A stretch of 64,000 nt of DNA from a phage. Positions 5,015 through 63,390 of this stretch are shown here, piece after piece. The notes beneath the pieces were generated by a model. It ran no database searches. It was given only the letters and a program-made list of their open reading frames with translations, and was not told the DNA's origin. Positions within the stretch are counted from its first letter, which is position 1. Each line of letters starts with the position of its first letter. The position numbers and the translations under genes were made by a program. The stretch is taken from the sequence record PX104380.1, one strand, 5' to 3'.

Positions 5015-5075
5015 AGTTGTATAGTACCACAGTATGCTTTGGTTGTAAACCGTTTTATGAAAAAAATTTTAAAAT
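5015..5075 (-). promoter_or_regulatory. Early (sigma70) promoter module upstream of motA
   Basis: - strand GTTTAC (plus 5045-5050), 17/18-bp spacer, extended -10 TGGTACTAT (plus 5021-5029), AT-rich UP region; conserved leader with GGAG before motA ATG. Confidence 0.65.
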
Positions 5076-5100
5076 AAAAAGGGAGAGCCTCGGCTCTCCC
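5061..5100 (-). terminator. Intrinsic terminator downstream of gene 52 and the 49-aa ORF
   Basis: - strand 8-bp GC-rich stem (GGGAGAGC/GCTCTCCC, 4-nt loop) followed by T-run TTTTTATTTTAAAATTTTTT. Confidence 0.7.
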
Positions 5101-5105
5101 TAAAA

Positions 5106-5255
5106 TTACTGCATGACTGTGATAACTGTCATGATAACACGTTGAATTCCGAACGCAAGAAGACCTCCTGCTACGGCTGGAACAACACCTAAACCCGCCA
5201 GTAAAATGCTACCGGATACTAATGCAGCGCTTGTAATACCAATGAATGGACTCAT
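5106..5255 (-). CDS. Small hydrophobic membrane protein (49 aa), translationally coupled to gene 52
   Basis: ATG 5255 overlaps gp52 stop (ATGA); own translation MSPFIGITSAALVSGSILLAGLGVVPAVAGGLLAFGIQRVIMTVITVMQ; below the 60-aa track cutoff. Confidence 0.5.
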   Translation of the reverse strand: MSPFIGITSAALVSGSILLAGLGVVPAVAGGLLAFGIQRVIMTVITVMQ

Positions 5256-6580
5256 TTGATTTCCTCTAAATCTTTAGTGTATTCTGTAACTACATCAGTA
5301 GTTTTCCAATATTCGTTTTCTTCTTTTTTAGCTTTAGCTTCTTCAGCAAGTTTCTTTGCTTCGTCGGAAGTCATATGAAAAATATTCATTCCGACTAGTT
5401 TATCGACATAAGAAGAATACATCTCAATTTTAGAAAGTTCTTCGGTCAGTTCTTTGCGAGTTTTACCCTGTACAACAATTTCACCTGAAATTACTTTCTT
5501 AATGAAATGCGCCTTGGCAAAGGCTAAACGAAAAGCTGACTCAGTTTCTTTGATTTTGTTATCAATTCGTTTTTGGACATAAGTTTTACGAACTTCAACG
5601 AAGTCTTTGATTAAATCAACTACGTTATCGTAAACTTGTAGCTTTCCTTTCTCATTAATAACGGTAATATTTTGGGAACGACGCTCAATCAACCCAAAGT
5701 CTTTCATAATTTTTGCATGGCGTTCTTCTTCGTTATCGCTCAAAGAATATTCTTTGCGGAATTTAACTTTGAAGCCAAAACCATGCTCACCACAAGCATC
5801 ATCCCATGTAATGAAGCCTTTATCTTCAAGTGGATCTAAAATTTTGCTCACATAAGTTTCACGATCATACTTATACGGAATCTCAGTGATATGCATTTGC
5901 GTTCGTGAAGTAAACTTATATGTTCCACGAATTTCATATTGACCGTCAATCTCAACGACTTCACCACGAAATTCTGGGAATTCTACCTTCGGTTTAGTTA
6001 CTTTCTTTCCTTGAAGAGCTTGCAGTACAGCTTTCTTGACAGAAGAAACACTATGAGGAAGAATGTAAGTTGCATAACCAGTTGCAATACCGGAAACACC
6101 ATTAAGAAGAACAGTAGGAATAATAGGCAAATAGAAAGCAGGCGGAATGTGTTCTTTATCTTGATGTACCGGAGCATATTCAGTATCTTTATATACGTTA
6201 TAGAAATTTTTACTTACACGAGCAAAAATATAACGACTTGCTGCTGCTTTTTGAACGGTACGAGAACCAAAGTTTCCTTGACCATCTAACAAAGGAAAGT
6301 TATTATTCCAAGTGTTAGCCATCAAAGCCCCCGCATCTTGTGCAGAGTTTTCACCATGATGATATCCAAGGTCCGCTACACCACCTGCAATAGAAGCGAG
6401 TTTGTGAAACTTATCTTTATTTCCTCGTGCCAAATCAAGAGCTCGAGCAATAACAAATCGTTGAACTGGCTTAAATCCGTCAATCATATTTGGAATGGCA
6501 CGATTTTCAACCGTGTACATAGCATAAGCCAATGCTTCATTATCAATGATACTTTTTAAATCGCGATTATTCAGTTGCAT
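5252..6580 (-). CDS. 52: DNA topoisomerase II medium subunit gp52 (GyrA-like)
   Basis: 442 aa, matches T4 gp52 length and order (motA-52); breakage-reunion region IDGFKPVQRFVIARAL. Confidence 0.93.
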   Translation of the reverse strand: MQLNNRDLKSIIDNEALAYAMYTVENRAIPNMIDGFKPVQRFVIARALDLARGNKDKFHKLASIAGGVADLGYHHGENSAQDAGALMANTWNNNFPLLDGQGNFGSRTVQKAAASRYIFARVSKNFYNVYKDTEYAPVHQDKEHIPPAFYLPIIPTVLLNGVSGIATGYATYILPHSVSSVKKAVLQALQGKKVTKPKVEFPEFRGEVVEIDGQYEIRGTYKFTSRTQMHITEIPYKYDRETYVSKILDPLEDKGFITWDDACGEHGFGFKVKFRKEYSLSDNEEERHAKIMKDFGLIERRSQNITVINEKGKLQVYDNVVDLIKDFVEVRKTYVQKRIDNKIKETESAFRLAFAKAHFIKKVISGEIVVQGKTRKELTEELSKIEMYSSYVDKLVGMNIFHMTSDEAKKLAEEAKAKKEENEYWKTTDVVTEYTKDLEEIK

Positions 6581-6584
6581 AAAT

Positions 6585-6725
6585 TTACCATACTAGTGAA
6601 TGTAGTGCCATAATAACATCAGAAATGAAAAGCACGACTTGAATTAATCCGAACATTACTCCATAATATAGTGCTACTAATAAAGTAGCAAGGGCTAATG
6701 AATAGCCCAAGATTTTCTTAATCAT
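6585..6725 (-). CDS. Small hydrophobic peptide (46 aa)
   Basis: own translation MIKKILGYSLALATLLVALYYGVMFGLIQVVLFISDVIMALHSLVW; directly upstream of gene 52. Confidence 0.4.
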   Translation of the reverse strand: MIKKILGYSLALATLLVALYYGVMFGLIQVVLFISDVIMALHSLVW

Positions 6726-6883
6726 TAGTAGATAACAACACAAATGTTAAATATGCACACATACCCTGAGCTAAAGCTTGCGAAAACACACTGCTGGCAT
6801 CAATACAGATAGTTAAAACACATGCTACTATCCAACAAATAAATGAAATAACTCCTAATAATTTTGCAATATTCATATTTTCC

Positions 6884-6997
6884 TCACATAAATCCAAAGT
6901 AAACGTTTAATACATCAATCATTAAAACGATTGGGAATATACTCAAAACTACTAGTATTATAACTACATTCCATATAGCTTTAACAATCTTTTTCAT
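6884..6997 (-). CDS. Small membrane peptide (37 aa) behind conserved early leader
   Basis: ATG 6997 preceded by GGAGGAACAGAAA leader; MKKIVKAIWNVVIILVVLSIFPIVLMIDVLNVYFGFM; track ORF is an upstream extension. Confidence 0.45.
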   Translation of the reverse strand: MKKIVKAIWNVVIILVVLSIFPIVLMIDVLNVYFGFM

Positions 6998-7019
6998 TTT
7001 CTGTTCCTCCGTAGTTGAT

Positions 7020-7080
7020 AGGGTAATAGTACCACGGAAGAACAGTCTTGTAAACAGCTTTTTTAAAAATATTCGTAATA
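7020..7080 (-). promoter_or_regulatory. Early promoter module
   Basis: - strand GTTTAC (7050-7055), 17/18-bp spacer, TGGTACTAT (7026-7034), AT-rich upstream. Confidence 0.6.
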
Positions 7081-7240
7081 AATGTGAATACCAACTACTA
7101 CCGCTGAAACCTGTGCAACCCACCACGCACAAGCAATAAGTACAGAATTCAAAATTTTCATAATAACCTCATTACAAAAGTAAATGTTAAACAAATTACT
7201 GGAATACTAATTAACCAAACAAAACACCACCATAGTGAAC

Positions 7241-7504
7241 TCATAGCTCAATCTCAGCGATTTTCATTTCATTACTATTAATAGCCGCTTTAAGACTATC
7301 TGAAAGAATTACATTCCAATGGTCATTCATATGACCATTAACTAAGCGTGTAATTTCTTCGGGAGTTGAAAAATAAGGCTGATCAGACTCCCAATGCGAT
7401 AGTCCCAAGCGAGTATAAATCATACCTTCATCATCGCTAGAATATTCAACTGACACAAACTCATCAGTTATTTTATGTTTAGCGTAATAAAATTTAAATT
7501 TCAT
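7241..7504 (-). CDS. Hypothetical protein (87 aa)
   Basis: ORF behind conserved leader CGGAGGAACAGAAAATG and an early promoter. Confidence 0.55.
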   Translation of the reverse strand: MKFKFYYAKHKITDEFVSVEYSSDDEGMIYTRLGLSHWESDQPYFSTPEEITRLVNGHMNDHWNVILSDSLKAAINSNEMKIAEIEL

Positions 7505-7526
7505 TTTCTGTTCCTCCGTAGTTGAT

Positions 7527-7587
7527 AGTTATATAGTACCACGGTCCTTGTGGTGTGTAAACCATTTTGTGAAAAATTTTTTAAATG
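7527..7587 (-). promoter_or_regulatory. Early promoter module
   Basis: GTTTAC (7557-7562), spacer, TGGTACTAT (7533-7541), AT-rich UP. Confidence 0.6.
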
Positions 7588-8138
7588 GAAAGATACCATC
7601 CGTTGTAGTTGCTTTTTCGCACTACCTTACGAAGGTCTTCTCTGTCACCGATGAACTTCGGAGTGTACTGGATGACACCTGGATGAATTTCTTTAGTGTT
7701 GAATATAATTATACAGTCCGCGACTTGATGATTTAGAATGGGCCCTAGATTTATTCCAGAACCATATGGATACTCTCCGCTGCATCCCGTTGTTACCGAA
7801 ATCCAACGCGAGTCAGTTTGATGTGTCTTAACTTCTACACGGAGCCCACAGTATTTTGGATGTGCTAAAACATCCCATGCATACGTGTACGGATCATCGG
7901 CATCTTCTTGACCTTTGTTAACATATCCACTCAACCAATCTGCTACCACATACTCGGCATACACAGCAATACGGCATCTTTCGATAACTTCTGCCTTATC
8001 CTGATTTGGGTTTTGTTTTAAAGAGTATCTTGCAGTATCAGCAATTTTGGCCTTCATTTCACTAGTCAAGTCACTGTTAGATAGTGTAAATGACGGAATC
8101 TGAAATAGTCTCTGCAAACCCGGATTCGTTTTCTGCAT
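7581..8138 (-). CDS. denB: Endonuclease IV DenB-like
   Basis: 185 aa, the size of T4 DenB, directly upstream of rIIB as in T4; sequence not verified. Confidence 0.6.
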   Translation of the reverse strand: MQKTNPGLQRLFQIPSFTLSNSDLTSEMKAKIADTARYSLKQNPNQDKAEVIERCRIAVYAEYVVADWLSGYVNKGQEDADDPYTYAWDVLAHPKYCGLRVEVKTHQTDSRWISVTTGCSGEYPYGSGINLGPILNHQVADCIIIFNTKEIHPGVIQYTPKFIGDREDLRKVVRKSNYNGWYLSI

Positions 8139-8167
8139 TTAAACTTTCCTTTATGTCGGAATCATAA

Positions 8168-8198
8168 TTTCTCTTAAAACAAAAGGGCCGAAGCCCTT
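8168..8198 (-). terminator. UUCG hairpin with T-rich tail (terminator-like)
   Basis: - strand AAGGGC-TTCG-GCCCTT then TTTTGTTTTAAG. Confidence 0.45.
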
Positions 8199-8201
8199 AT
8201 T

Positions 8202-8396
8202 TTATTTGAATTGTGCAATTCTTTTTTCTAAACAATCTGCGTAAGATTTCATTGAGATGAACTGTGAAAGCAGTAATTCTTGCTCAACTGCATTAACTGT
8301 TAGAAACTTTGCGCTTTCTAAAAATTTACTCAGTGCATTAATTTTGAGCATTAATTGATCGTATTCTTCTTTTACTCGTGCTTGATAACCTAACAT
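8202..8396 (-). CDS. Hypothetical protein (64 aa) between rIIB and denB
   Basis: ORF with predicted helical/coiled character. Confidence 0.45.
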   Translation of the reverse strand: MLGYQARVKEEYDQLMLKINALSKFLESAKFLTVNAVEQELLLSQFISMKSYADCLEKRIAQFK

Positions 8397-8428
8397 AATT
8401 TTCCTTAATGTGATAAGGGACGAAGCCC

Positions 8429-9367
8429 TTATTTAAATTGTTCTGTAACGTCTTCAACTACTTCGTATTGGCAGGTACGCATTTTAGCATCGTTGTAATC
8501 AATCGGAATTGATACTACATCACGCGGATGTACTTTAACTTTTACAACTCGGCTAGTTGAACTGCCAAAGTGACGAATATAAGATTTAGAACACACATGC
8601 AGACCGCGAGAACAAGTTTGTGTATCATCGTCATTCACACGAGTACGTGGCATTTTAACTACTTTACCAGGGCTGTTATCAAAAGTATTTGAATGACAGT
8701 CAAAGTAATTGCTGCGAACTACTTTCCAAGCATAGAAGTAACCGTCTTCTGTAATTTCAATATCGTTTGCTACCAAGAAATCAAAGAGTCGAGATACCGC
8801 TTTTTGGCTTGGGTTTTCCAGCAGATTTTCCAAGAACGGAAAATAGAATTCAAAGTTTTCGCCTTTTTCCATCGAGTCAAGAATACGATCAACCAAACCA
8901 GACCGTAATTCGATATTTTGATAGAACAAGCTTCCACCTTCAATTCGAACATCGCCGGAAATATATTTTTCAACAGCGCGGCGAACATTAATTTTTTGCG
9001 CAGCTTCTTCCAGCTTATCTGCTACAAGCAGATTAAGAATTTCCTGGAAGTTTGAATGAGTATTAGGAGTTGCGTTATAAGTTACACCGTCAACAGTAAT
9101 TGAAATGAATTTTTTAGATGCATTCCAAATAATGTCAGATTTAGCAACTGGAGCAATAGCTACATCACTCTTAACTTCAACTGTAATGTCACCGCTAATA
9201 GTAACTTTGGAGCGTTTAGCTTCTTCAGCATTTTTCAAAACACGACGGATTGTGTCAACCGATACACCTTGCCAATCAGCCAATTCCTGTTGGGTGTAAT
9301 TACCACTTGAATACAGCTTAACAATTTCAGCTTGTTCGTTTTTGGTCAGGCATTTAATATTGTACAT
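8429..9367 (-). CDS. rIIB: rIIB protein
   Basis: 312 aa, MYNIKCLTKNEQAEIVKLYSSGNYTQQELADWQGVSVDTIRRVLKNAEEAKR N-terminal HTH; downstream of rIIA. Confidence 0.9.
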   Translation of the reverse strand: MYNIKCLTKNEQAEIVKLYSSGNYTQQELADWQGVSVDTIRRVLKNAEEAKRSKVTISGDITVEVKSDVAIAPVAKSDIIWNASKKFISITVDGVTYNATPNTHSNFQEILNLLVADKLEEAAQKINVRRAVEKYISGDVRIEGGSLFYQNIELRSGLVDRILDSMEKGENFEFYFPFLENLLENPSQKAVSRLFDFLVANDIEITEDGYFYAWKVVRSNYFDCHSNTFDNSPGKVVKMPRTRVNDDDTQTCSRGLHVCSKSYIRHFGSSTSRVVKVKVHPRDVVSIPIDYNDAKMRTCQYEVVEDVTEQFK

Positions 9368-11566: not shown

Positions 11567-11770
11567 TTAATTCATATTACGCTTAATAACTTCAGCAACT
11601 TCTAGTAATTCATCTTTAGTTGCAGTGTCGGATTGAATTTTATCTCTAATATCTTTAAAGCGGTTTTTAAATTCTTCGGCTTCTCCCATATCGAAAAAGC
11701 GTTGAATGATTCTATATTCTCGATGAACTGCTTTATCAAAAAGTTCTAAATTTACTTTATATGATTTCAT
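11567..11770 (-). CDS. rIIA.1: Hypothetical protein rIIA.1-like (67 aa)
   Basis: small ORF between gene 39 and rIIA. Confidence 0.55.
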
Positions 11771-11789
11771 TTCAATATCCTCATTTGCC

Positions 11790-11845
11790 CAATTAATTAT
11801 ACCACATCCTTGTGGTAAAGTAAACTACTGGCTCATCCATTCTTT
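11790..11845 (-). promoter_or_regulatory. Early promoter for rIIA.1/rIIA
   Basis: - strand GTTTAC (11820-11825), 18-bp spacer, TGGTATAAT (11796-11804); overlaps 3' end of gene 39. Confidence 0.55.
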
Positions 11846-13642
11846 ACGAAGGTCAGCATTATCTCCCATGAGCATTTCAAAAAGCTCATTCCAGTTCTCA
11901 GGAAGTTTAACAACATCATATACCGGATTTTGAATCATCTCACGATATTCAGATTTTTCCAAAGAGCCAAGTCCCTTAATATAACGGATGCTATGTTTAG
12001 GTAGAGCATCTTTAGCACTCTCATATTCAGCGACTGTATAAAACCATTCTTGTTTTTTACCGACCTGAGCGATGATTACAGGAGTTTTGACAAAGCGAAT
12101 TCTTCCTTGTTCAAACAGTTCTGGCCAATTACTAAAAAATCCGAGCAGAGAAGGATAAATGCTTCCTAGACCATCATGGTCAGCATCGGTCATAATAGCA
12201 ATATTATGATAATTCAAGTTTTCAGCTTTTTCACCAAGAACTAATCCAGTGATTGCGCAAATATCAAACAGTTCTTTGTTTTTAAGCATATCAGCATATG
12301 ACATACCCCAACTGTTGAGAACTTTACCGCGCAATGGATAGCCACCATGAAGTTCTTTATCACGAACATCGATTAAATAACCAATTGCAGAATCACCCTC
12401 AGTCAAGAAAAGAGTAGTGTCAGCATCTTTACCACAAAGATTCGCTTTGATATGTTTATGAACCTTAGCTTTAGAAGCCTTTTTAGCTGCTTTAGTTTCT
12501 GCTGCTTTTTCTGCCGCCAATTTACGAGCCAAGGCAGCTTCAATAATCGGCATTAAAATTGCTTCATTATTTAGAATAGCGCGTGAAATCTTTTTAGCAT
12601 CAAGTTGAATATGACTACGAATTTCGCCAAATGGAGAAGTCAAACGCTCTTTAGTTTGAGAATCAAATCGCATGTTTTTCATATCACGGACAAACATAAC
12701 GATAGTCAAACATTCTTTAACGCGTGCTTTAGTCACATCAATTTTGAACTTACGTTTGATTTGTGGAATAAGGTCTTCACAAATATCATCCATAACACAG
12801 TCAATGTGATGGCCACCATTCTTAGTGTGAATGTTATTCACATAAGTTAATTGACGAAAACCATCCGGTGAACGACCAACCGCAATAGAGCAATTTTCTT
12901 GTTCTTGAACGATAGCATGCTCATCATATTGGCGTGCATATTTCTTAAAATTGCCCTGAACCTTTTTACCATTAAAGGTAAATTGAATATCAGGATAAAC
13001 TACTGCAAGTGTCTGGAGACGATCTAGTGTAATGTCAAGATAAACTTGGGACAGCTCATTAGTTTCAAATGACATAAAATCAGGAATGAAAGTAACACGA
13101 GTTCCTTTCCATTTTCCAGGAATAGTTTCCCATGATTTATTTTCCATGCCATTTGAACAACGAACTACAATATTATTTTGACCATCACCAGTTTCACCGA
13201 CAAACATCACAGAAAAAATGTTTGTCAAACTAGAACCAACACCATTCATACCGCCAGTGACGCGTTCTTTATCATCACCGAAGTTACCACCTGCTTTTGG
13301 AATAGTCCAGGCAGCAACAGGACCAGGAATTTCTTCACCGGTAGGTGTTTTGACCATCGCTTGTGGAATACCGCGACCGTTATCTTCAACTGTTACCTGA
13401 TTATTTTTAATGGTAACATTAATTTTATTCGCGAATTTAAACTTAGTACGAATACCTTCATCTACTGAGTTATCGATAATTTCATCAATAAGCTTAACAA
13501 GACCAGGTACATACTGAACACTTTCCCATTTACCAAACAGAAAGCGCTCATGCATTTCATTAGCAGAAGAGCCAATATACATGCCGCTACGCTTTTTGAT
13601 ATGTTCAATATCGCTCAGAATTTTAATTTCATTCTTAATCAT
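11825..13642 (-). CDS. 39: DNA topoisomerase II large subunit gp39 (GyrB-like), uninterrupted
   Basis: 605 aa single ORF with ATPase N-terminus and TOPRIM motifs (TEGDSA, DADHDG); no gene 60 split. Confidence 0.93.
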   Translation of the reverse strand: MIKNEIKILSDIEHIKKRSGMYIGSSANEMHERFLFGKWESVQYVPGLVKLIDEIIDNSVDEGIRTKFKFANKINVTIKNNQVTVEDNGRGIPQAMVKTPTGEEIPGPVAAWTIPKAGGNFGDDKERVTGGMNGVGSSLTNIFSVMFVGETGDGQNNIVVRCSNGMENKSWETIPGKWKGTRVTFIPDFMSFETNELSQVYLDITLDRLQTLAVVYPDIQFTFNGKKVQGNFKKYARQYDEHAIVQEQENCSIAVGRSPDGFRQLTYVNNIHTKNGGHHIDCVMDDICEDLIPQIKRKFKIDVTKARVKECLTIVMFVRDMKNMRFDSQTKERLTSPFGEIRSHIQLDAKKISRAILNNEAILMPIIEAALARKLAAEKAAETKAAKKASKAKVHKHIKANLCGKDADTTLFLTEGDSAIGYLIDVRDKELHGGYPLRGKVLNSWGMSYADMLKNKELFDICAITGLVLGEKAENLNYHNIAIMTDADHDGLGSIYPSLLGFFSNWPELFEQGRIRFVKTPVIIAQVGKKQEWFYTVAEYESAKDALPKHSIRYIKGLGSLEKSEYREMIQNPVYDVVKLPENWNELFEMLMGDNADLRKEWMSQ

Positions 13643-13694
13643 TACTTATCCTCGTTTGGTTTCGGGAATATTATACTCCAATAATCATAAAGCT

Positions 13695-13712
13695 AAAGGC
13701 CCGAAGGCCTTT
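13695..13712 (-). other. UUCG hairpin in gene 39 5' region
   Basis: - strand AAAGGCC-TTCG-GGCCTTT; followed by AGCTTTA and TATAAT-like elements. Confidence 0.5.
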
Positions 13713-13976: not shown

Positions 13977-14348
13977 TCACTTAAATTTAATGGCTTGAAG
14001 GAGACTAATAATTCTTAAACGGCTTCTTTCATCTTTAACTGTAAAGGAAAGAGGGTCACCAGATTTCATAGTGATAGTGCATCCAAAATCAAAATTTTCG
14101 GAAACTTCTTCGAAGAAGTCAAATTCTTCAGCATAAATTAGAACATTACTCTGCATACTGTGAAGAATTTTTCCATCATTTCCAGATGCTGTACTAATCA
14201 TCGTAACATTATGACCTTTCATATCTTCAACGATAAATTCGCTTGTAGATATTACAGCATTAATAGAACCATTCCTATAAATAGCAGACATTAGATATTT
14301 CTTTTCTTCACCTTCGCGAACACGATATTTCTTACCGATTTTAAACAT
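13977..14348 (-). CDS. Hypothetical protein
   Basis: ORF; ATG at 14348 preferred over GTG 14354 of the track. Confidence 0.5.
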   Translation of the reverse strand: MFKIGKKYRVREGEEKKYLMSAIYRNGSINAVISTSEFIVEDMKGHNVTMISTASGNDGKILHSMQSNVLIYAEEFDFFEEVSENFDFGCTITMKSGDPLSFTVKDERSRLRIISLLQAIKFK

Positions 14349-15162: not shown

Positions 15163-15432
15163 TTAATTGAACAGCGGAGCGATACGTTTCAGAAGAGTAG
15201 CAGCACCTTTAGCGAATTTTACATCATGAAAAACAGTTTCTTCTTCTGTAACAACTCGAACTTTAATATTTTCACAATCCCAATTTTTACGAACAATCTT
15301 CAAAAGCTGCAGTAAATCTTTACATTCAGCAATATCGATAACACATCCACGAGAATCTTCCATTATCGCACGATAACCGTAAGCCATACCATAATCGTTG
15401 AAAGATTGCTCGATGATAATTAAGTTTTCCAT
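15163..15432 (-). CDS. Hypothetical protein (89 aa)
   Basis: ATG 15432 behind GGAGAATAAA leader; track start is a TTG extension. Confidence 0.5.
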   Translation of the reverse strand: MENLIIIEQSFNDYGMAYGYRAIMEDSRGCVIDIAECKDLLQLLKIVRKNWDCENIKVRVVTEEETVFHDVKFAKGAATLLKRIAPLFN

Positions 15433-15469
15433 TTTATTCTCCAAGTTGTTTTCTGTATCAGTAGTTGAT

Positions 15470-15530
15470 ATTGATATAGTACCATAATCAACTACTGATG
15501 TATATAGTTTTATGAAAAAATTTTAAACTT
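15470..15530 (-). promoter_or_regulatory. Early-promoter-like module (degenerate -35)
   Basis: TGGTACTAT -10 (15476-15484) but -35 is TATACA; flanked by inverted repeat ATCAGTAGTTGAT/ATCAACTACTGAT. Confidence 0.4.
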
Positions 15531-16027
15531 TATGCATAGCGAGCTTTGCTGTAGTGTTTAATCCAACTTTCAGGAATGACTTTGTATGTTCCCAAAAATA
15601 CCACGTTGTACAACTTAACACCATCTTCTACCCACTGATCGGTAATGTATGCACACATAGCACGAGTATGATGTTTTTGAACAACCCCTTCCTCATCTTC
15701 AGTAAATTCGAATTCATAAGGAGCAACGAACTTAATAGCTTGACCGAGTTTCCACTTAAAGTCTACACCTACATGTGAAGTATCAATCGTTTCAATTCCT
15801 TTAGCAGGAACAGCTTTCAAAAACGCAGACTCAAGAAATTTCGCACGAACATAGCCAAACTGAGGTTTAGACTTTCCATCTTTAGGAATGATACGCACTT
15901 TTACTTCAGAATCTTCATCTTTAACACCATGTTTAAGCTGAATGCTTACAATTTCGACCAATTTTCCTGCTGCTTTAGAACGGGATTTATCAGATACACG
16001 AGCAATTTCACCAATATTAATAATCAT
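15530..16027 (-). CDS. Hypothetical protein, paralog A (165 aa)
   Basis: C-terminal motif CAYITDQWVEDGVKLYNVVFLGTYKVIPES shared with the next ORF. Confidence 0.55.
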   Translation of the reverse strand: MIINIGEIARVSDKSRSKAAGKLVEIVSIQLKHGVKDEDSEVKVRIIPKDGKSKPQFGYVRAKFLESAFLKAVPAKGIETIDTSHVGVDFKWKLGQAIKFVAPYEFEFTEDEEGVVQKHHTRAMCAYITDQWVEDGVKLYNVVFLGTYKVIPESWIKHYSKARYA

Positions 16028-16103
16028 AGTTATCTCTCACTTGTTAAAAAGATTTTATACTCCACGGGACCAGAGTATAATGGTCCCAAGAGTTTGTAAA
16101 CTA

Positions 16104-16649
16104 TTAATTTAAAATAGCTACCACCGCACTACGAGGTACTACACTAAAATCACCTGCATGAACAACGTTCAGAAGTTCAACACCATCTTCAATCCACTGG
16201 TCTGTTACCCAACCACAGATAGGATTATCAAAAGGACGACGGATAGACACAGCAGCACACAACAGGTCTGTAGGGTCTTGTTCTTCAACTTCTTGGAACA
16301 GGATGAACTCATCTTCATAAACCAGGTTTTTCTTTATTTTGTTATTATCTAACCGGCGACCGTGGATGACGTAAGATTTGTCAAACCACTCACTTTTGGC
16401 AAATTCTTCAACAATAAATTCGCCTTCGCCAAAAACATCAGTCAGAGTTTTATGACCAGAAATCAAGGCATTAGTTTTAATTTTAGGTTCAACCAGTTTG
16501 TAGGTTTTGCCGATTTCAATAGCGATAGTCATAGTAGGTTCCTTAATTTCCAGTGGTTTAACAGGGCATACATAAGTGCTTACAACATCAAAATCAATCA
16601 GTTTAGCTACCGGATTTGGTATGTATTCAGGATTATAATTAAATTTCAT
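16104..16649 (-). CDS. Hypothetical protein, paralog B (181 aa)
   Basis: C-terminal motif CGWVTDQWIEDGVELLNVVHAGDFSVVPRS. Confidence 0.55.
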   Translation of the reverse strand: MKFNYNPEYIPNPVAKLIDFDVVSTYVCPVKPLEIKEPTMTIAIEIGKTYKLVEPKIKTNALISGHKTLTDVFGEGEFIVEEFAKSEWFDKSYVIHGRRLDNNKIKKNLVYEDEFILFQEVEEQDPTDLLCAAVSIRRPFDNPICGWVTDQWIEDGVELLNVVHAGDFSVVPRSAVVAILN

Positions 16650-16651: not shown

Positions 16652-17152
16652 TTATCTCATTTCAATAAAATCTACGAGTTCAGCATGCGATTTGCGGAAC
16701 ATTACTTGGTGCCCACCAATGATAACTTCATCTTCAGGAACTTCGTATACAGCGAGATAAAATCCTTTAGAAGATAATTCTTCCCGCTCTTCTCGTGTGA
16801 ACCATCTCATCATATCATACTCACTAGCGAAAGCAAAATGATAAAGAGCTATAAACCATCCTGGAATATGATATTCTACTCCAACATAATCTTTCTTGAA
16901 CTTAGTATTAATTACTATATTAGCGTTTTTAACTAATAGTTTATCTTCGTGTGGTAAAGGAATTCTTTTATTATTATCGCTATGATGCATAAAATTAGGT
17001 CTGTCATAACCTACGTGTAATAGCCACTCTTCGCTCCATGAATCTATTATACTCCTGTACGGAGTTATTTGAACACAAAGATTTCGACGTATTGTTATAG
17101 CATCTTCATAATCAAGAATACTAAACGATGATTCAACACGATAAATTTTCAT
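16652..17152 (-). CDS. Hypothetical protein (166 aa)
   Basis: ORF behind GAGG SD, downstream of an early promoter. Confidence 0.55.
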   Translation of the reverse strand: MKIYRVESSFSILDYEDAITIRRNLCVQITPYRSIIDSWSEEWLLHVGYDRPNFMHHSDNNKRIPLPHEDKLLVKNANIVINTKFKKDYVGVEYHIPGWFIALYHFAFASEYDMMRWFTREEREELSSKGFYLAVYEVPEDEVIIGGHQVMFRKSHAELVDFIEMR

Positions 17153-17174
17153 TTTATTATCCTCAGTAGCTATG

Positions 17175-18626: not shown

Positions 18627-18632
18627 ATAGCC

Positions 18633-52027: not shown

Positions 52028-53837
52028 GTTTTACTCGTTTTACCATTTCTTTCATTTTACCTAAATTCCATGGAACAACGCTAGGAGTTCCAAGATATCC
52101 GCATGTTCTTCTTATGGTATTCATCTTTTTAGGATCAGTTTCTCCACAAATAGAACAAACAAATCCGTTTTCAGTAGGAGTCATTTCATGGGTACTTCCA
52201 CATGTAAAACATTTATCTACTGGCATATTAACACCAAAATAATCTAAATGTTGTGCAGCATAATCCCATACGGCCTCAAGACCCTTTAAGTTATTTTTCA
52301 TATCAGGAAGTTCAACATAAGAAATGTGGCCGCCTGTCGCAATGAAATGATATGGCGCTTCACGAGAAATCTTTTCAAACGGAGTAACATTTTCTTCTAC
52401 TGAAACGTGGAAACTGTTAGTGTACCAGCCTTTATCGGTAACATCTTTTACACTTCCATATTTTTCGGTATCAAGTTTACAGAAGCGATAACACAGGTTT
52501 TCAGCAGGAGTAGAATACAAGCTAAAAGCAAATCCGGTTCTTTCTGTCCACTGCTTAAGACGAGCATTCATTTTAGTTAAAATTTCTTGTCCAATATCAC
52601 GACCGACAAGAATATTCAATTCGTGAATACCAATGTATCCTAAGGACACTGAACTTCTACCGTTTTTAAATAACTCAATTATATCATCATCAGGTTTAAG
52701 ACGAACCCCGAATGCACCTTCTTGGTAAAGAATAGGAGCAACAGTCGCTTTAACTCCTTTTAAGGAACTAATTCTACACATCAAAGCTTCAAAACACAGA
52801 TCCATTCGTTCATTAAATAGCTCAACAAATTTCTGCTCATTGAATTGAGTTCCAATATAAGAATCTAATGCGATGCGAGGAAGATTCAATGTTACAACAC
52901 CAAGATTATTACGTCCATCAAGAATTTCATTACCGGTTGAATCTTTCCACACACTCAAGAAACTACGACAACCCATTGGAGAAACAGGAGTAGATGAGCC
53001 GGTGATAGCTTTATTGTTCTTAGCCGAAATGATGTCAGGATACATTCTTTTGCTTGCGCACTCTAGAGCAAGCTGTTTAATATCATAGTTCGGGTCGTCT
53101 TTATAAAGATTAACACCTTCTTCAACGAACATAACAAGTTTAGGGAAAATAGGAGTTATCCCATCACGACCAAGACCTTTAATACGATTTTTCAGAATTG
53201 CTTTCTGAATCATTCGTTCAGTCCAGTCAGTTCCCGTACCAAATGTAATTGTTACAAAAGGCGTTTGTCCGTTTGAACTAAAGAGAGTATTTACTTCATA
53301 TTCATAAGCTTGGAATGCATCGTATACATCTTTTTCTGTTTTAGATTGAGCATAATTCAACGCATCAGCGATTTGCCATTTTTCTGCATCCTCAATATGT
53401 TTTGCATAGGTGCGTTTAACATAAGGAGAAAGTACTTTATCTACATTCGCAAAAGTCGTTCCGCCGTATTGATGGGAAGCAACCTGTGCAGTAATTTGTG
53501 CCATAATTGCAGTAGCAACACCGATTGATTTAGGAGTTTCAATCTGTGCATTACCAAGCTTAAATCCGTTCTCAAGCATTCCTTTTAAATCTACTAAACA
53601 ACAATTAGTAAATGGAAGAGCAGGGGAATAATCAATATCATGGAAATGAATAATTCCGCTTTCATGCGCTTTCATAATAAAAGACGGGACCATATTTTTG
53701 GCAATGTGTTTAGACACAATACCAGCCATAAGGTCCCGTTGAGTTGGAAAAACACGAGAATCTTTATTAGCATTCTCGTTTAAAAGGTCTTTATTAGTTT
53801 TATGAATCAATCCTTCAATTTCTTTTTCAATTGTCAT
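52020..53837 (-). CDS. nrdD: Anaerobic ribonucleotide reductase NrdD, intronless
   Basis: 605 aa contiguous; glycyl-radical region RRTCGYLG and C-terminal Zn ribbon CFTCGS...CSICG. Confidence 0.95.
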   Translation of the reverse strand: MTIEKEIEGLIHKTNKDLLNENANKDSRVFPTQRDLMAGIVSKHIAKNMVPSFIMKAHESGIIHFHDIDYSPALPFTNCCLVDLKGMLENGFKLGNAQIETPKSIGVATAIMAQITAQVASHQYGGTTFANVDKVLSPYVKRTYAKHIEDAEKWQIADALNYAQSKTEKDVYDAFQAYEYEVNTLFSSNGQTPFVTITFGTGTDWTERMIQKAILKNRIKGLGRDGITPIFPKLVMFVEEGVNLYKDDPNYDIKQLALECASKRMYPDIISAKNNKAITGSSTPVSPMGCRSFLSVWKDSTGNEILDGRNNLGVVTLNLPRIALDSYIGTQFNEQKFVELFNERMDLCFEALMCRISSLKGVKATVAPILYQEGAFGVRLKPDDDIIELFKNGRSSVSLGYIGIHELNILVGRDIGQEILTKMNARLKQWTERTGFAFSLYSTPAENLCYRFCKLDTEKYGSVKDVTDKGWYTNSFHVSVEENVTPFEKISREAPYHFIATGGHISYVELPDMKNNLKGLEAVWDYAAQHLDYFGVNMPVDKCFTCGSTHEMTPTENGFVCSICGETDPKKMNTIRRTCGYLGTPSVVPWNLGKMKEMVKRVKHA

Positions 53838-57216: not shown

Positions 57217-58218
57217 TTACTTAATTAACTGTAAAGCCTGTTCTAAACGATCAAGACGATTAACAGATTCTTCCCAAATCCTTTTAGCCTGCTCATATTC
57301 TTTCTGCGCTTTATTAGAAATTTCTAGAACTTCTTTATAAGCTTTTTCTAATGCAATAACTTCTGGACGAATTTCTACCGGTTCAGGTGAATCATCAAGA
57401 CATTCCATTAGTTCCTCAAGGGTAGTTTCTTCTTTAGGAGTATTCACAATTTCATCACATTTTTGTTGGTAAATTTCTTTACTAGTAGGTGAATAAGTAC
57501 ATTTCACTTCACGAAGACTAACTACAATTTTATATCCTTCCCAACCGCATATATTCTTAAAAGGATATGTATGAATATTTTCTACCGTTTCCATACAAAG
57601 TAATGCAGTCTCTAACTGATGAGTTGTATCACTAGCAATTGAGAAAAATTTATTAATATTCTTTTGATTAGCTTCTGGTGTAAAAAATTCATAATTCACA
57701 AAAATAGCTGCTTTATTTTTATCAAGTTCATATTCTTTTATGATAATCATATCAGAAGCCAAAGGATGAATTTGACGATAATCGCCATAACATAATTTAG
57801 AAGCTGATTTTAGAATTTGCTTCTTGAAAAGTCTAAAATTACTAATCCAACGACGAGTAAAAATATTCTCAGGGTCTTCTTTATTATTAAGATGATAAGA
57901 ATTAACATCACCGAACCAACTGTATCCTACTACATCTTTGGTTCGTTTAATTTCTTTCCCAAAATTACTAAGAATATCTTGATTAACTAAATATGAAAGA
58001 AGACGAGACCCTTTAAAGGTTTCCTTAATATCATCTTTATCTACACGACTAGAAATTTTATGAACTTCATGAATAAATTTGCTGGAAGAAACAATACTTG
58101 CATCAGTATTGTTGAGCCACTGATTGATAATAGAAAGAACACTATTCTGACTAGACATAGGTTTAACTTTATCATCAATAACACTATTGAATGATTTGAT
58201 ATATTCGTTACGAGTCAT
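57217..58218 (-). CDS. Coiled-coil paralog family member 2 (333 aa)
   Basis: start at ATG 58218 behind GGAG; shared motif FRLFKKQILKSASKL; C-terminal coiled coil. Confidence 0.6.
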   Translation of the reverse strand: MTRNEYIKSFNSVIDDKVKPMSSQNSVLSIINQWLNNTDASIVSSSKFIHEVHKISSRVDKDDIKETFKGSRLLSYLVNQDILSNFGKEIKRTKDVVGYSWFGDVNSYHLNNKEDPENIFTRRWISNFRLFKKQILKSASKLCYGDYRQIHPLASDMIIIKEYELDKNKAAIFVNYEFFTPEANQKNINKFFSIASDTTHQLETALLCMETVENIHTYPFKNICGWEGYKIVVSLREVKCTYSPTSKEIYQQKCDEIVNTPKEETTLEELMECLDDSPEPVEIRPEVIALEKAYKEVLEISNKAQKEYEQAKRIWEESVNRLDRLEQALQLIK

Positions 58219-58240
58219 ATTAATCTCCTCAGTAGAAAGT

Positions 58241-58297
58241 AAGAACATTATACCACATCCTTGTGGCAAAGTAAACTAGTTCAGTGCATTTAGTGCG
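58241..58297 (-). promoter_or_regulatory. Early promoter
   Basis: GTTTAC (58271-58276), 18-bp spacer, TGGTATAAT (58247-58255). Confidence 0.55.
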
Positions 58298-59280
58298 TTG
58301 TTCAATTTAGAACGTTGCTTCGTGAGATTTTTTACTTTTTCTTGAGCTTTTTCTAGCATCTTTTCAGCTTCTAACACTTCATTAGTTGCTTTAACGAGTT
58401 CATCATCTACTGCCTTGATAGACTTCTCAATCGCATCCGCGTGCCATTTTTCAACAGGTTTAAGACTCGGATTTTCAACAGGAAGAAAATTCACTTTATT
58501 GAATTTCCATGCATCATTATTACCTGAACTATACATCCAAAATTTAGGATCGTTTGATGAGTAATTAGTTTGGTGTTCAGGTTTTTTCTCTTGTATAACT
58601 TCGTCCTTTCTCAAAAAATCGTATTTAAATGAAACGATCATATCAAGTTCATACGTTGTTGTGTCTAATTTAAATCGTTCAAAACGAGGTAAAATCTTAG
58701 ATTGAACAGCAGCAACAACATCCATATACTTAAATGCTTCTGTCAGCTGTGATTTAAGACATTCACAAATTGAAAGAGAATTTTTTGTATTAGGTTTAAA
58801 GCTAATTCGTGCAGTTCTATTATTTTCTTTTAATGGTCTTACTTCCATCTGAAGAGTATAACCATCAAATTTCAGGTTCTTTAAGTTAATGTCAGAACCT
58901 TTTAATCGACTAGCCGTCGACAAAATTTGCTTTAATTGTTTACGGAATAGAGCAATAAATCTCCATTCAATACGATAATGATTTGGATTGAAAAATCCAG
59001 ATGATAAATCGACCTTACTTTGACCAACGCCTTGAACAAATAAAGGATTTTTATAATCAATAGTTTTACAGAAATCGGTGAGCTGCTCACGAGCAGTCAT
59101 TTGTGTAATATACCCTGCTTCATTAAAATTACGCACCCATTCACTGCTATTCATATATTTAAAGTGAATGGAACTATTAACTTTATCAGGGTCTAAATTA
59201 TTTTGGCACAAAAATGTCATAACATCACGAGTATAGCTGGCATTACGAACCATATCTTCAATTTGAGAACGAGTTTTCAT
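58276..59280 (-). CDS. Coiled-coil paralog family member 3 (334 aa)
   Basis: shared motif FIALFRKQLKQILSTASRL; C-terminal coiled coil. Confidence 0.6.
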   Translation of the reverse strand: MKTRSQIEDMVRNASYTRDVMTFLCQNNLDPDKVNSSIHFKYMNSSEWVRNFNEAGYITQMTAREQLTDFCKTIDYKNPLFVQGVGQSKVDLSSGFFNPNHYRIEWRFIALFRKQLKQILSTASRLKGSDINLKNLKFDGYTLQMEVRPLKENNRTARISFKPNTKNSLSICECLKSQLTEAFKYMDVVAAVQSKILPRFERFKLDTTTYELDMIVSFKYDFLRKDEVIQEKKPEHQTNYSSNDPKFWMYSSGNNDAWKFNKVNFLPVENPSLKPVEKWHADAIEKSIKAVDDELVKATNEVLEAEKMLEKAQEKVKNLTKQRSKLNNALNALN

Positions 59281-60647: not shown

Positions 60648-61175
60648 TTATGCGAGTACCGTCTTTAACCGTTCTTCAAACTTCCGAAGAGTATTCTGGC
60701 GTTCAGCTCTTTGCTTTTTGTAAGTTTCAATACGCTCTGAAATGAGAGTGTATCGTTCATTTACTGATTCTTTCATAAAATCAGGAATTTCACGAGAAGC
60801 TTTAATCTCATCAAATTTATCAATAACAGCTTGCTCTTCAGCAATTAAGTTATCATACATCAAAATATCTTTCTTGATGAACTCAATATCTTCTTGAGTT
60901 ACACGAGATAACTTAGATGCTTTATCCTTTTTGTACTGTTCGTTAGTATCACGAGACCAGTGTAATGTACGATTTTTATTCGTATTTTTGTAAATTTCTA
61001 CGATACCAATCTCATCAATAATAACGATCCAATTCCAACGGGATTTGTAAATTTGTCCTCCATCAACTGTGATTTCACCTCCGATTGAGATGTCATTAAA
61101 GAACTTGCTTTGTGCTTCAGATTTAAATTTACCATCGTTGTAATTTACCAAGTTGAAAATATCTTTAGCGTTCAT
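60648..61175 (-). CDS. Hypothetical protein (175 aa)
   Basis: ORF behind conserved leader and early promoter. Confidence 0.55.
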   Translation of the reverse strand: MNAKDIFNLVNYNDGKFKSEAQSKFFNDISIGGEITVDGGQIYKSRWNWIVIIDEIGIVEIYKNTNKNRTLHWSRDTNEQYKKDKASKLSRVTQEDIEFIKKDILMYDNLIAEEQAVIDKFDEIKASREIPDFMKESVNERYTLISERIETYKKQRAERQNTLRKFEERLKTVLA

Positions 61176-61197
61176 TTTCTGTTCCTCTGTAGTTGAT

Positions 61198-61255
61198 AGT
61201 TGTATAGTACCACAGAGGAACAGTCTTGTAAACCACTAAAAGAAACTTCTTTCAC
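61198..61255 (-). promoter_or_regulatory. Early promoter module
   Basis: GTTTAC (61228-61233), 18-bp spacer, TGGTACTAT (61204-61212); 12-bp inverted repeat CTGTTCCTCTGT/ACAGAGGAACAG flanks the -10. Confidence 0.6.
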
Positions 61256-61550
61256 AATTTTTTCCACTGAACCACGCGCTCACTGCTTTCTTAGTCTCAG
61301 GAGCAGTGTTATCCATAAACCATTCAAAGGCAGCCTTTTTATGATTCTGGAGGGCTTCTCGGGCTTTAATCTGCTCACGGTCTATTAACACTAACATATG
61401 AGCCTTTCTTGTCACCAAGGGCTTCTTATGATTTTTTGAATACTCCCAATCATTTGTCCATCGCATCGTTGTTGCGAACTGAAATACTGCTTCTTTAATT
61501 TTAGTTTCGTAAATTTCACGAGCCTTTGAGTATAACATCATTACCTCCAT
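61236..61550 (-). CDS. Hypothetical protein (104 aa)
   Basis: ORF. Confidence 0.5.
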   Translation of the reverse strand: MEVMMLYSKAREIYETKIKEAVFQFATTMRWTNDWEYSKNHKKPLVTRKAHMLVLIDREQIKAREALQNHKKAAFEWFMDNTAPETKKAVSAWFSGKNCERSFF

Positions 61551-61620
61551 TTACTAGTTTAATTCTAGTCATCTTTTTGATGGCAGTCCATATAATCTAT
61601 TTCTGAACTGCCTTTTTGTC

Positions 61621-62340
61621 TTAGGATTCTTCTAAATGTCTTTTCTGAAAAGTTGATACCATACTACGATACGGTTCATTTGGATACCCGTGTTTTATAG
61701 CTTCCTTTGTAAATTTTCTCCATCCATATTTAGTTTCTTTCCAAAGCTCGAATAATTCATCTTCATACTGCCATATAGTTAAATGAGAACGCTTTGCAGC
61801 TTTAATTCCATTAATATGCTTTTCTTTTACTACAGGATTGCTTAGTTTCTTTTTAATAATATTACTAACTTTTCTAACAAAAACTGGGTCCTTATATCGT
61901 TGCGAAGTTTTTATTGAAGTGTTTAATTTAGCTTCCGGTGTGGATGTGACCTCTTTCATCTTTTTCTTCATATGCTGTATATGATTAGGATTTTTCCATA
62001 AATTTATAGAATGCTTTTTGCATTTTATCCTAGTTTCATCTGCAACCTTTCCTCCTTCACCTCCGTATGACAGGTTAACACAGTTTTTTCCATATTTCAA
62101 TTTACCTGCCATGATATATAATATTTCAGCTTGTACCATTTTATCATAATTATCAAAAACTTCTAAAACCGTTTTTGATAATATGTGGTCATTTGACACT
62201 TTTACACGTTCTATATAATTTCCACTACCAACATACGAATCATTGATGTTATTAGTTATATGTCGACCATAATAGTATTTCTTAATACCTGTCTTTAAAT
62301 TTAATATTTCAGTTTTATAGATAGTAAAATATTTTTTCAT
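61621..62340 (-). CDS. GIY-YIG (Seg-like) homing endonuclease candidate
   Basis: 239 aa; N-terminal YFTIYKTEILN...YYYGRH...YVGSG; C-terminal module shared with ORFs at 24831 and 40597. Confidence 0.6.
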   Translation of the reverse strand: MKKYFTIYKTEILNLKTGIKKYYYGRHITNNINDSYVGSGNYIERVKVSNDHILSKTVLEVFDNYDKMVQAEILYIMAGKLKYGKNCVNLSYGGEGGKVADETRIKCKKHSINLWKNPNHIQHMKKKMKEVTSTPEAKLNTSIKTSQRYKDPVFVRKVSNIIKKKLSNPVVKEKHINGIKAAKRSHLTIWQYEDELFELWKETKYGWRKFTKEAIKHGYPNEPYRSMVSTFQKRHLEES

Positions 62341-63305
62341 TTTAATAATACCGTTTCAGCAATTTCTTCCCAATGATTTTTGTCGGTCATAATAAAGTCA
62401 GCAAGATAAAGAGCAGTACGCAGTGAAACATTGCGTAAACGATTAACATTGACTTTCATCCATGATAATGCTTTATAAGTTTCTTCATCAGAAAGACCGC
62501 GCTTTTGCATCATGTCAGTTGAAAGAATAACATCTTCAACCCTGACCATAATTTCTTCATTAGTGTGAACACCCAAATCCAAATAAACTGAGCGGGACAC
62601 TAATGCTTGTAAATGTGGAGCAAGTTTAGTACCACGGTCTAATTCGCGGTCAATGTCAACGTTTGTGATAAAAACAATCGTTCCTTTAAATTCAAACTCA
62701 CGCTCAATGCCTTTTTCTTCTAAGTAAGAAGATGCGGTGCTCCAGCAGACTTTACGGGTCTCTCCAGTGTCCAGAGCAGCTTTCAGAAGATTAAGAATGT
62801 CCATATCAGAGAAAACATCCACATCATCAATCAAAAGGACAGAATTCTCTTCACGATTATTCCAAAGCTGTTCATAAAGACCGATACCAGAGATTTTACC
62901 ATTAATGCTTTTATACTCAATGTATCCAATATCATTTGCTTTATTTAAAGCTTTATCTAAAGAATACGTTTTACCAATACCCGCCGCGCCAGAGATAATT
63001 AATGAACGAATGTTTCCGTTAATAATACCATTCGTCATCATTCCCATAACATTAAATCTTTTATTAATGCGGGTTTTCATATCTTCATACGATTCTTTAA
63101 CTTCTTCAACTTTTACACCATCATATGAAATGTCTGATTTGTAAACCCAAACACCGCGACGTTTACCGTCAATTTCAACAAAAACTTTACCATCTCCTTG
63201 TGCATCTACTGGAGCATTATCAGGGAACCACTCACCTAAGAGTTCAAAGGTTCCAGAGATTTCTTTGCCAAAGTAAATACCCTTATTGATAGTTACAGTT
63301 TTCAT
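62337..63305 (-). CDS. P-loop NTPase (AAA-like)
   Basis: 322 aa from ATG 63305; Walker A GAAGIGKT, Walker B LLIDDVD; track extension reads through a terminator hairpin. Confidence 0.55.
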   Translation of the reverse strand: MKTVTINKGIYFGKEISGTFELLGEWFPDNAPVDAQGDGKVFVEIDGKRRGVWVYKSDISYDGVKVEEVKESYEDMKTRINKRFNVMGMMTNGIINGNIRSLIISGAAGIGKTYSLDKALNKANDIGYIEYKSINGKISGIGLYEQLWNNREENSVLLIDDVDVFSDMDILNLLKAALDTGETRKVCWSTASSYLEEKGIEREFEFKGTIVFITNVDIDRELDRGTKLAPHLQALVSRSVYLDLGVHTNEEIMVRVEDVILSTDMMQKRGLSDEETYKALSWMKVNVNRLRNVSLRTALYLADFIMTDKNHWEEIAETVLLK

Positions 63306-63333
63306 TTTATTCTCCAAATCTGTATCAGTTGAT

Positions 63334-63390
63334 AGTTGTATAGTACCATAAAGCTTTATGCTTGTAAACAACTTTGTGAAAAATTTTTGA
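63334..63390 (-). promoter_or_regulatory. Early promoter module
   Basis: GTTTAC (63364-63369), 18-bp spacer, TGGTACTAT (63340-63348). Confidence 0.6.

Follow-up and report, generated by a model that had tools for sequence, protein, structure and literature searches.

Repeated T4-type early promoter modules in a Tequatrovirus genome segment and the spacer-leader hairpins found in some of them

A 64,000-nucleotide (nt) stretch of phage DNA (sequence record PX104380.1), analyzed here at its full length and called the window, is a segment of a Tequatrovirus (T4-like) genome. Megablast searches with 7-kb and 25-kb pieces returned identities of 94 to 97% to hundreds of Tequatrovirus genomes and no identical record. 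The window is 93 to 97% identical to and collinear with phage T4, positions 1570-9367 corresponding to T4 160197-168903 (t, asiA, motA, gene 52, ndd.4-6, denB, and rIIB) and positions 9368-64000 to T4 1 to ~56013 (rIIA to nrdC.11), with the alignment broken by ~20 indels or replacements. From ~2.5 kb onward the genes lie on the minus strand, and short repeated units are dispersed among them. We conclude, with a probability of roughly 90%, that these units are sigma70-dependent, T4-like early promoters that also act as crossover modules and that about a third of them carry a hairpin joining the promoter spacer to the leader.

The repeated units as early promoters

About 14 minus-strand copies of an early promoter and leader module had been listed in an earlier reading made from the DNA letters (the sequence-only reading), and all 14 were found in their proposed places. 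The motif GTTTAC-N15-TGGTAYWAT has 11 exact matches in the window, all on the minus strand, where 100 shuffles give an expectation of 0.01; copies 15505, 22409, and 28634 (copies are named by the first base of the −35 element) each depart from it at two positions. When up to three mismatches were allowed, 38 matches were found against 8.9 expected, 35 of them on the minus strand. The −35 element is GTTTAC in 13 of the 14 copies and ATATAC in one, whereas the extended −10 element is TGGTAYWAT in 12, the remaining two having TGATATGAT and AGATACTAT. The −35 element and the extended −10 element are separated by 15 nt in every one of the 14 copies, and the motif with a 16- to 19-nt gap has no match in the window; the 17- or 18-bp spacing proposed earlier holds for the distance to TAYWAT (18 nt, or 17 nt with TTTACW as the −35 element) but not for the gap to TGGTA. 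The proposed A+T-rich UP region, measured over the 24 nt upstream of the −35 element, is present overall (mean 76% A+T versus 66% for the window; consensus AAAATTTTTCACAAAGTT) but is lacking in copies 11825 and 58276. A matrix built from the 14 copies added four sites on the minus strand (2585, 16101, 21073, and 29137) and none on the plus strand. The T4 orthologues of the added sites precede asiA, motB, srd, and dmd, so the earlier list, although every entry stood, is incomplete by at least four likely promoters.

The promoters, all on the minus strand, are given below with the start codon (ATG) and the position of the T4 orthologue where available. The transcription start (+1) is predicted throughout, as set by the register of the T4 promoter Pe133295, and an ATG preceded by a Shine-Dalgarno (SD) sequence lies 19 to 38 nt from it. 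"Added" marks promoters absent from the earlier list; ORF denotes an open reading frame and aa amino acids.

2522-2609, minus: asiA promoter (added), one mismatch to the motif; −35 2585-2580, −10 2561-2556, +1 ~2549, ATG 2524; T4 161211, followed by the asiA start
4977-5074, minus: motA promoter and leader, the leader holding a GGAG site; −35 5050-5045, −10 5026-5021, +1 ~5014, ATG 4979; T4 163673
5078-5101, minus: intrinsic terminator upstream of the motA promoter, AGGGAGAGCC..GGCTCTCCCT plus T-run, −17.2 kcal/mol
6995-7079, minus: ndd.4 promoter and leader A; −35 7055-7050, −10 7031-7026, +1 ~7019, ATG 6997; T4 166807
7502-7586, minus: promoter of an 87-aa ORF, leader A; −35 7562-7557, +1 ~7526; leader A and the ORF are both absent from T4 at the orthologous site
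11768-11849, minus: rIIA.1 promoter; −35 11825-11820, +1 ~11789, ATG 11770; T4 2458
15430-15529, minus: promoter of an 89-aa ORF upstream of cef; −35 (ATATAC) 15505-15500, +1 ~15469, ATG 15432; T4 6630
16025-16125, minus: probable motB promoter (added); −35 16101-16096, weak −10; T4 7215
17150-17233, minus: motB.2 promoter; −35 17209-17204, +1 ~17173, ATG 17152; T4 8218
21006-21097, minus: probable srd promoter (added); −35 21073-21068, ATG 21008; T4 11851
22351-22433, minus: modB promoter; −35 22409-22404, +1 ~22373, ATG 22353; T4 13186
24459-24553, minus: terminator hairpin (24553-24532), then the mrh.2 promoter; −35 24517-24512, +1 24481, ATG 24461; T4 15288
28574-28658, minus: sp promoter; −35 28634-28629, +1 28598, ATG 28576; T4 20109
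29076-29161, minus: dmd promoter (added); −35 29137-29132, ATG 29078; T4 20612
34787-34877, minus: promoter of a 78-aa ORF absent from T4, leader B (RegB-type SD), spacer the same as in copy 7055; −35 34853-34848, +1 ~34817, ATG 34789; T4 27080
49629-49715, minus: 55.6 promoter; −35 49691-49686, +1 49655, ATG 49631; T4 41706
58216-58300, minus: nrdC.4 promoter; −35 58276-58271, +1 58240, ATG 58218; T4 50973
61173-61257, minus: nrdC.8 promoter and leader A; −35 61233-61228, +1 ~61197, ATG 61175; T4 53943
63303-63419, minus: terminator hairpin (63419-63398), then the nrdC.10 promoter, leader B; −35 63369-63364, +1 63333, ATG 63305; T4 55384

The units agree with what has been published on early promoters of T4, whose consensus combines a UP-like, A-rich region with GTTTAC at −36 to −31 and a −10 element extended by GT-rich sequence, and which have been described as "uber" UP/−35/TGn/−10 promoters (PMC1524935; PMC2988021); for T4 and PST the consensus TTTACW-N17-TAYWAT has been reported (Comeau 2014, PMC4122927). 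At the orthologous places T4 has the same promoter for all 14 copies, each before an early gene: motA, ndd.4, ndd.6, rIIA.1, a small ORF upstream of cef, motB.2, modB, mrh.2, sp, imm.1, 55.6, nrdC.4, nrdC.8, and nrdC.10. Copy 17209 corresponds to the T4 promoter that starts near 8182, presumably the experimentally dissected P8.1, and T4 early promoters are reportedly also treated by Liebig & Rueger 1989, Wilkens & Rueger, and Miller 2003. The T4 records NC_000866 and AF158101 contain no promoter features, and one note in them names the early promoter Pe133295. The G of its GTTTAC lies at 133331, which puts +1 at 36 nt from that G and 7 nt past the −10 element, the register proposed for the window copies by the sequence-only reading. 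Copy 34853 has an orthologue in Yersinia phage fPS-90 that is annotated as a "predicted early promoter," with a terminator upstream; an intrinsic terminator likewise lies upstream of five window copies. Published consensus, T4 orthology, and the fPS-90 annotation thus all support the proposal that the copies are early promoters defining early transcription units. Host RNA polymerase would use these promoters immediately after infection, so that each would open an early transcription unit on the minus strand, and the practical gain for annotation is a reliable map of at least 18 such units in this phage. Early promoters as such, and their role in shuffling, are textbook knowledge or already published.

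It is highly improbable that the copies are dispersed repeats without promoter function, chance matches, or middle promoters that depend on MotA. The shuffles reject chance, every copy lies on the coding strand before an SD and an ATG, and the positions match those of orthologous T4 early promoters. Middle promoters are ruled out by the absence of the MotA box (TGCTT at −30), the sigma70-type −35 element GTTTAC being present instead.

A near-identical leader beginning CAACTAC(G/A) had also been described. Such a leader occurs, but CAACTACRGAGGAACAGAAAATG is present at only three places (6995, 7502, and 61173). Seven copies share the leader TGGTACTAT..CTATCAACT, two other leader types exist, and the SD is GGAG in many leaders. 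What makes the leaders alike is a shared set of signals, namely, a conserved start region, GGAG-type SDs, and A-rich spacers.

A common spacer, CCACAAGGA(T/C)(G/C)GTGGTA, was observed in three promoters (11796-11827, 58247-58278, and 7533-7562), and it folds as a small hairpin within the spacer and extended −10 element (CCACA..TGTGG in the rIIA.1 promoter). Two of the three overlap the TAG stop of the upstream ORF (TAGTTTAC) and have no A+T-rich UP region. The nrdC.4 copy (58276) and copy 11825 are 97% identical over 32 nt.

Pairing between promoter spacers and leaders

A 12-bp inverted repeat duplicating the SD region within the spacer had been reported for two copies. The inverted repeats, at 7001-7045 and 61179-61223, are real and had been understated: the stems are 15 bp long, and comparable repeats were found in five further copies, although the spacer arm is the reverse complement of the SD rather than its duplicate. 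The complementarity of positions −36 to −13 to the leader was compared for each promoter with 200 shuffles, and 6 of the 18 window promoters (7055, 15505, 16101, 17209, 29137, and 61233) had values reached by 0/200. In total, hairpins are borne by 7/18 early promoters in the window and 12/32 in T4, compared with ~1% of background sites. A scan of the window at Rfam gathering thresholds gave no match. The seven window hairpins are as follows, with duplex energies and shuffle counts.

7001-7045, minus: ndd.4 hairpin, 15 bp; 5′ arm 7045-7031 (spacer and TGG), 3′ arm 7015-7001; −23.3 kcal/mol, 0/200
15499-15487 and 15469-15457, minus: hairpin of copy 15505, 13 bp; −19.3 kcal/mol, 0/200
16093-16081 and 16072-16059, minus: motB hairpin (copy 16101); −19.5 kcal/mol, 0/200
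17202-17185 and 17176-17160, minus: motB.2 hairpin, 17 bp, covers the SD GAGGA; 0/200
22385-22372 (−10 to +2) and 22364-22351 (SD to AUG), minus: modB hairpin, 14 bp; −18.0 kcal/mol
29130-29116 and 29109-29095, minus: dmd hairpin, 15 bp, brackets the −10 element; −16.8 kcal/mol, 0/200
61223-61209 and 61193-61179, minus: nrdC.8 hairpin, 15 bp, covers the SD; −24.5 kcal/mol, 0/200; fold −26.1 kcal/mol

In the ndd.4 hairpin (minimum free energy, −22.7 kcal/mol) the loop holds the −10 element and +1, and the 3′ arm consists of ACTAC and the SD GGAGGAACAG. Transcripts that begin at the own starts of promoters 7055 and 61233 are unstructured. The hairpins of these two promoters differ by a compensatory change, CCG/CGG in one and CTG/CAG in the other.

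In the T4 genome, a duplex of −15.5 kcal/mol or lower was found at 12 of 32 early promoters, including those of regB, 57B, alt.-2, cd.2, and rnlA, and the same value was reached by 1.3% of random positions and 0.6% of other SD-ATG sites. For 10 of the 32 T4 promoters, opening the ribosome site on a read-through transcript was predicted to cost 7 to 17 kcal/mol more than on the transcript from the promoter itself, against 8% of 158 controls (Mann-Whitney p = 4e-4); for T4 modB (13186) the cost is 16.2 versus 2.3 kcal/mol.

In T4, masking was predicted to be strongest (14 to 17 versus 2 to 4 kcal/mol) for regB (62797, an RNase), modB (13186, an ADP-ribosyltransferase), rnlA (136336, RNA ligase 1), and alt.-2 (123093, an Alt-fragment ORF); the last two have nearly duplicate promoters.

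Orthologous promoters were gathered from other phages by way of the downstream proteins, ~700 records holding motB.2. Hairpins with differing arms are retained at motB.2 and nrdC.8 in Tequatrovirus, Dhakavirus, and Mosigvirus. For motB.2, UCCUCGGU.UAG... pairs with ...CUACUGAGGA in Tequatrovirus, UUCUCCUCAUG with CAUGAGGAGAA in Dhakavirus Bp7 and related contigs, and UUCUCCUCUGGUU with AACCAGAGGAGAA in Mosigvirus SF; the z-scores are −4.2 to −6.8, and the SD is covered in all three genera. At nrdC.8 the upstream repeat differs in each of three clades, covering the SD in two and bracketing the −10 element in one. The compensatory changes in the motB.2 arms were taken directly from the folds, without pair counting; in a MAFFT alignment of the three genera the promoters fall out of structural register, the anti-SD moving by 1 to 2 nt, and an exact-pattern scan of IMG/VR yielded 17 stretches on 7 contigs, too few for covariation.

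Among stems picked by a strand-symmetric criterion, the non-Watson-Crick positions were nine G.U and one A.C. The sense strand folds better than the antisense strand in 19 of 24 cases, a count partly biased by the choice of the set. An upstream intrinsic terminator accompanies 0/12 promoters with an inverted repeat and 7/20 others (Fisher p = 0.029). Together with the opening costs predicted in T4, these counts favor an RNA structure of the sense strand that acts on transcripts arriving from upstream.

Probable exchange of small cassettes at the promoter modules

The copies had further been suggested to be dispersed repeats of 30 to 40 bp that could mediate recombination. Repeats are indeed shared, although the longest exact stretches common to copies are 30, 27, 27, and 23 nt, and indel junctions relative to T4 fall in the leader or ATG of copies 7562 and 34853, in keeping with a role as recombination sites. 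The two cassettes are as follows.

7274-7514, minus: cassette lacking in T4, lying between ndd.6 and its promoter
34553-34789, minus: extra ORF cassette (78 aa) relative to T4, with the junction GGAGAAT(A/G)AAATGAAAAT

The upstream junction of the 87-aa ORF cassette (7515) lies in the conserved leader, CAACTAC|GGAGG in the window versus CAACTAC|TGATAC in T4, and the cassette is polymorphic among 498 phage records. For the 78-aa cassette, which is present in 321/510 matching records, the junction lies between the ATG region (34787-34789) and 34775. A published mechanism, the shuffling of promoter early stem-loop (PeSL) cassettes, places crossovers between the −10 element and the ATG and includes an ndd.4/.5 exchange between T4 and PST (PMC2839356; PMC4122927). 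By that mechanism, small ORF cassettes would be gained or lost at the modules, which may act as crossover points by virtue of sharing identical stretches as long as 30 nt. A crossover history of this kind, as suggested by the junctions, would explain where small ORF cassettes are exchanged.

Other differences from T4 were noted along the window. The T4 block stp-ndd-ndd.1-ndd.3 (T4 165508-166624) is absent, its junction lying at 6872-6887 with flanks that overlap by 16 nt, and tblastn with T4 Ndd and Ndd.1 as queries found no match in the window. At 12161-12224, 64 nt stand in place of T4 2794-3910 (the gene 60 bypass region, 60.1, mobA, and the end of gene 39), so the gene for the large topoisomerase subunit is probably uninterrupted, as in RB69, and free of translational bypass. 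Homologues of T4 dam, beta-gt, segA, mobB, and I-TevII are absent at the T4 positions (window 26217-26238, 32081-33026, 46640-46665, and 53299-53302). In place of segA/beta-gt, a 282-aa ORF adjoins gene 42, and by its position it could be the T2/T6-type second glucosyltransferase, annotated there in fPS-90. Two ORFs for GIY-YIG Seg-like homing endonucleases (51209-52044 and 61625-62357; distant tblastn matches to T4 SegA and SegF) lie where T4 has mobC or nothing, the second of them between nrdC.9 and nrdC.10, among promoter copies. Additional minus-strand ORF insertions relative to T4, at 13986-14345, 18402-18632, 37749-37998, and 40612-41486 (~120, 77, 82, and 291 codons), have no early-promoter copy adjoining. 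A second family of dispersed repeats, AAAGGGCCGAAGCCCTT(T/A), occurs at 8166-8431, 13679-13712, 37723-37754, 39893-39924, 45415-45448, and 48792-48837; these are G+C-rich hairpins and probably the intrinsic terminators of minus-strand units.

Possible hairpin function and comparison with known systems

Several points weigh against the combined reading of the units as early promoters, crossover modules, and hairpin carriers. Promoter activity is predicted from T4 orthology, the consensus, and the literature, and the four added promoters score 12 to 17 bits where the best shuffle reaches 14.5. Only two or three of the ~20 synteny breaks relative to T4 lie at promoter modules, most of the breaks being homing-endonuclease or other unrelated indels, so the promoters would be one contributor to rearrangement among several; one of the three, at 15225-15424, is not a promoter-promoter crossover but a deletion in T4 that keeps the frame and lies at a microhomology by the ATG. 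As for the hairpins, those of copies 15505, 16101, and 29137 leave the SD uncovered, U-runs are absent after the stems, and the statistics on terminators and G.U pairs are modest and were computed post hoc. Repeats in RB69 are weaker (best, 7 to 25 of 200 to 300 shuffles); the T4 consensus recovers only 8 to 10 promoters in the first 50 kb of that genome.

In about a third of the promoters, the spacer between the −35 and −10 elements has complementarity to the leader, frequently to the SD. RNA begun at the promoter's own start would lack the 5′ arm, leaving the ribosome site open, translatable, and accessible to RegB, whereas on a read-through transcript from upstream the hairpin would form and either mask the ribosome site or attenuate the read-through. 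Insulation from read-through transcripts, by masking or by attenuation, seems the likeliest role of the hairpins. We put forward only tentatively, and consider rather doubtful, the narrower proposal that in roughly a third of T4-type early promoters a conserved hairpin makes translation depend on the promoter used, open on the own transcript and closed on read-through; the genes under such a switch would include regB, modB, motB.2, rnlA, ndd.4, nrdC.8, alt.-2, and others. A real contender, although still on the unlikely side, is that the hairpins mainly attenuate or terminate upstream transcription, guarding the promoter from occlusion and isolating cassettes, with no control of translation. 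An attenuator or terminator function was proposed and partly shown for PeSL stem-loops in RB49 (PMC2839356); the lack of any separate upstream terminator at promoters with an inverted repeat fits it, as do the three window hairpins that spare the SD. However, the stems are A+U-rich, the missing U-runs make classic termination unlikely, and the 3′ arm of most strong hairpins is formed by the SD, an arrangement conserved across genera.

Translational coupling, in which the downstream ribosome site on polycistronic read-through RNA opens only once the 5′ arm has been melted by a ribosome completing the upstream ORF, appears improbable. The upstream ORF does stop 3 to 8 nt before GTTTAC in T4 coordinates (ndd.5 before the ndd.4 promoter, dexA before motB.2, and nrdC.9 before nrdC.8), placing the 5′ arm within reach of the terminating ribosome, but the arm begins 13 to 16 nt past the stop codon, at the edge of that reach. 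We give similarly little credence to a role at the level of DNA or a mutational origin, that is, cruciforms or hairpins that promote recombination or influence promoter melting, or quasi-palindromes perfected by template switching. The stem-loop has been speculated to be a recombination target (Arbiol 2010, PMC2839356), and an inversion between the arms of the cd.2 promoter was once reported. Against this, the stems tolerate G.U and not A.C (9 to 1), sense folds better in the partly selection-biased count, the arms covary across genera while the SD stays paired, and the enrichment is specific to promoters.

The reported inversion concerns T4 133300-133313, within Pe133295, for which the T4 record states "inverted complement of previously reported sequence." Between the arms GGTAGAG/CTCTACC, this 14-nt stretch takes in exactly the loop and 2 nt on each side; the difference reflects either a genuine inversion variant bounded by the hairpin or an artifact that the hairpin caused in sequencing.

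Compared with the T4 early (Pe) promoters, the window promoters are alike in the UP region, GTTTAC, the TGn-extended −10 element, spacing, strand, and genomic positions; they differ by a few base changes and in that two of them drive ORFs absent from T4, which is nothing of substance. The strong consensus for cleavage by RegB with S1 is GG*AGRAYARAA (PMC3014915, a review of T4 posttranscriptional control). Leader B (TTGGAGAATAAAATG; copies 15505, 34853, and 63369) matches it at every position and the motA leader at six of seven variable positions, whereas leader A (GGAGGAACAGAA) matches GGAG only. The matches are predicted cleavage sites, and the fit of leader B suggests that the similarity of the leaders is partly explained by shared signals for translation and decay.

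PeSL cassettes resemble the window modules in their composite architecture of early promoter, stem-loop, SD, and ATG between small ORFs, the ndd region being a published example. In the window this architecture appears as seven promoters with spacer-to-leader stems and five with upstream terminator hairpins, and it is associated with indels between related phages. The stem-loops published for T4 and PST lie just upstream of the promoter and are AGNA-loop-TCNT terminators, which the window has at 5078-5101, 24532-24553, and 63398-63419. In RB49 and phi1, spacer-to-leader stems bracketing the −10 element were described as G/C-rich terminators; the window stems, in contrast, are A/U-rich, have no U-runs, and mostly pair with the SD. 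The kind of element is known, and we did not find its A/U-rich, SD-pairing form in T4 proper in the accessible literature, although older T4 papers may mention it. The hairpins are a well-supported sequence feature, modestly novel at best, from which a function is inferred.

The closest regulatory parallel is offered by T4 e, soc, 49, and I-TevI, whose ribosome sites are sequestered on long transcripts and have a late promoter inside the hairpin; switches of this type at early promoters are not among the cases in the 2010 review of T4 posttranscriptional control (PMC3014915). The likeness is that the proximal promoter starts between the arms, so that the transcript it makes can be translated, having no 5′ arm; pairing of the SD and/or AUG on the long transcript, with the start between the arms, is predicted for 7055, 17209, 22409, and 61233. 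The four classic hairpins contain late promoters (TATAAATA, gp55) and delay expression, whereas the promoters inside the window hairpins are sigma70 early promoters, and translation would be confined to the immediate-early period because the internal promoter is early. As modeled here, the window hairpins share the mechanism of e, soc, 49, and I-TevI but do not belong to the same class. If the proposed switch is true, it would account for how T4-like phages hold some early proteins (an RNase and an ADP-ribosyltransferase) strictly immediate-early despite extensive read-through transcription, and it would serve to confine toxic early proteins to the first minutes of infection. It would also explain part of the unexplained sequence conservation in early-promoter spacers and would give the four classic late-promoter hairpins a genome-wide equivalent at early promoters.

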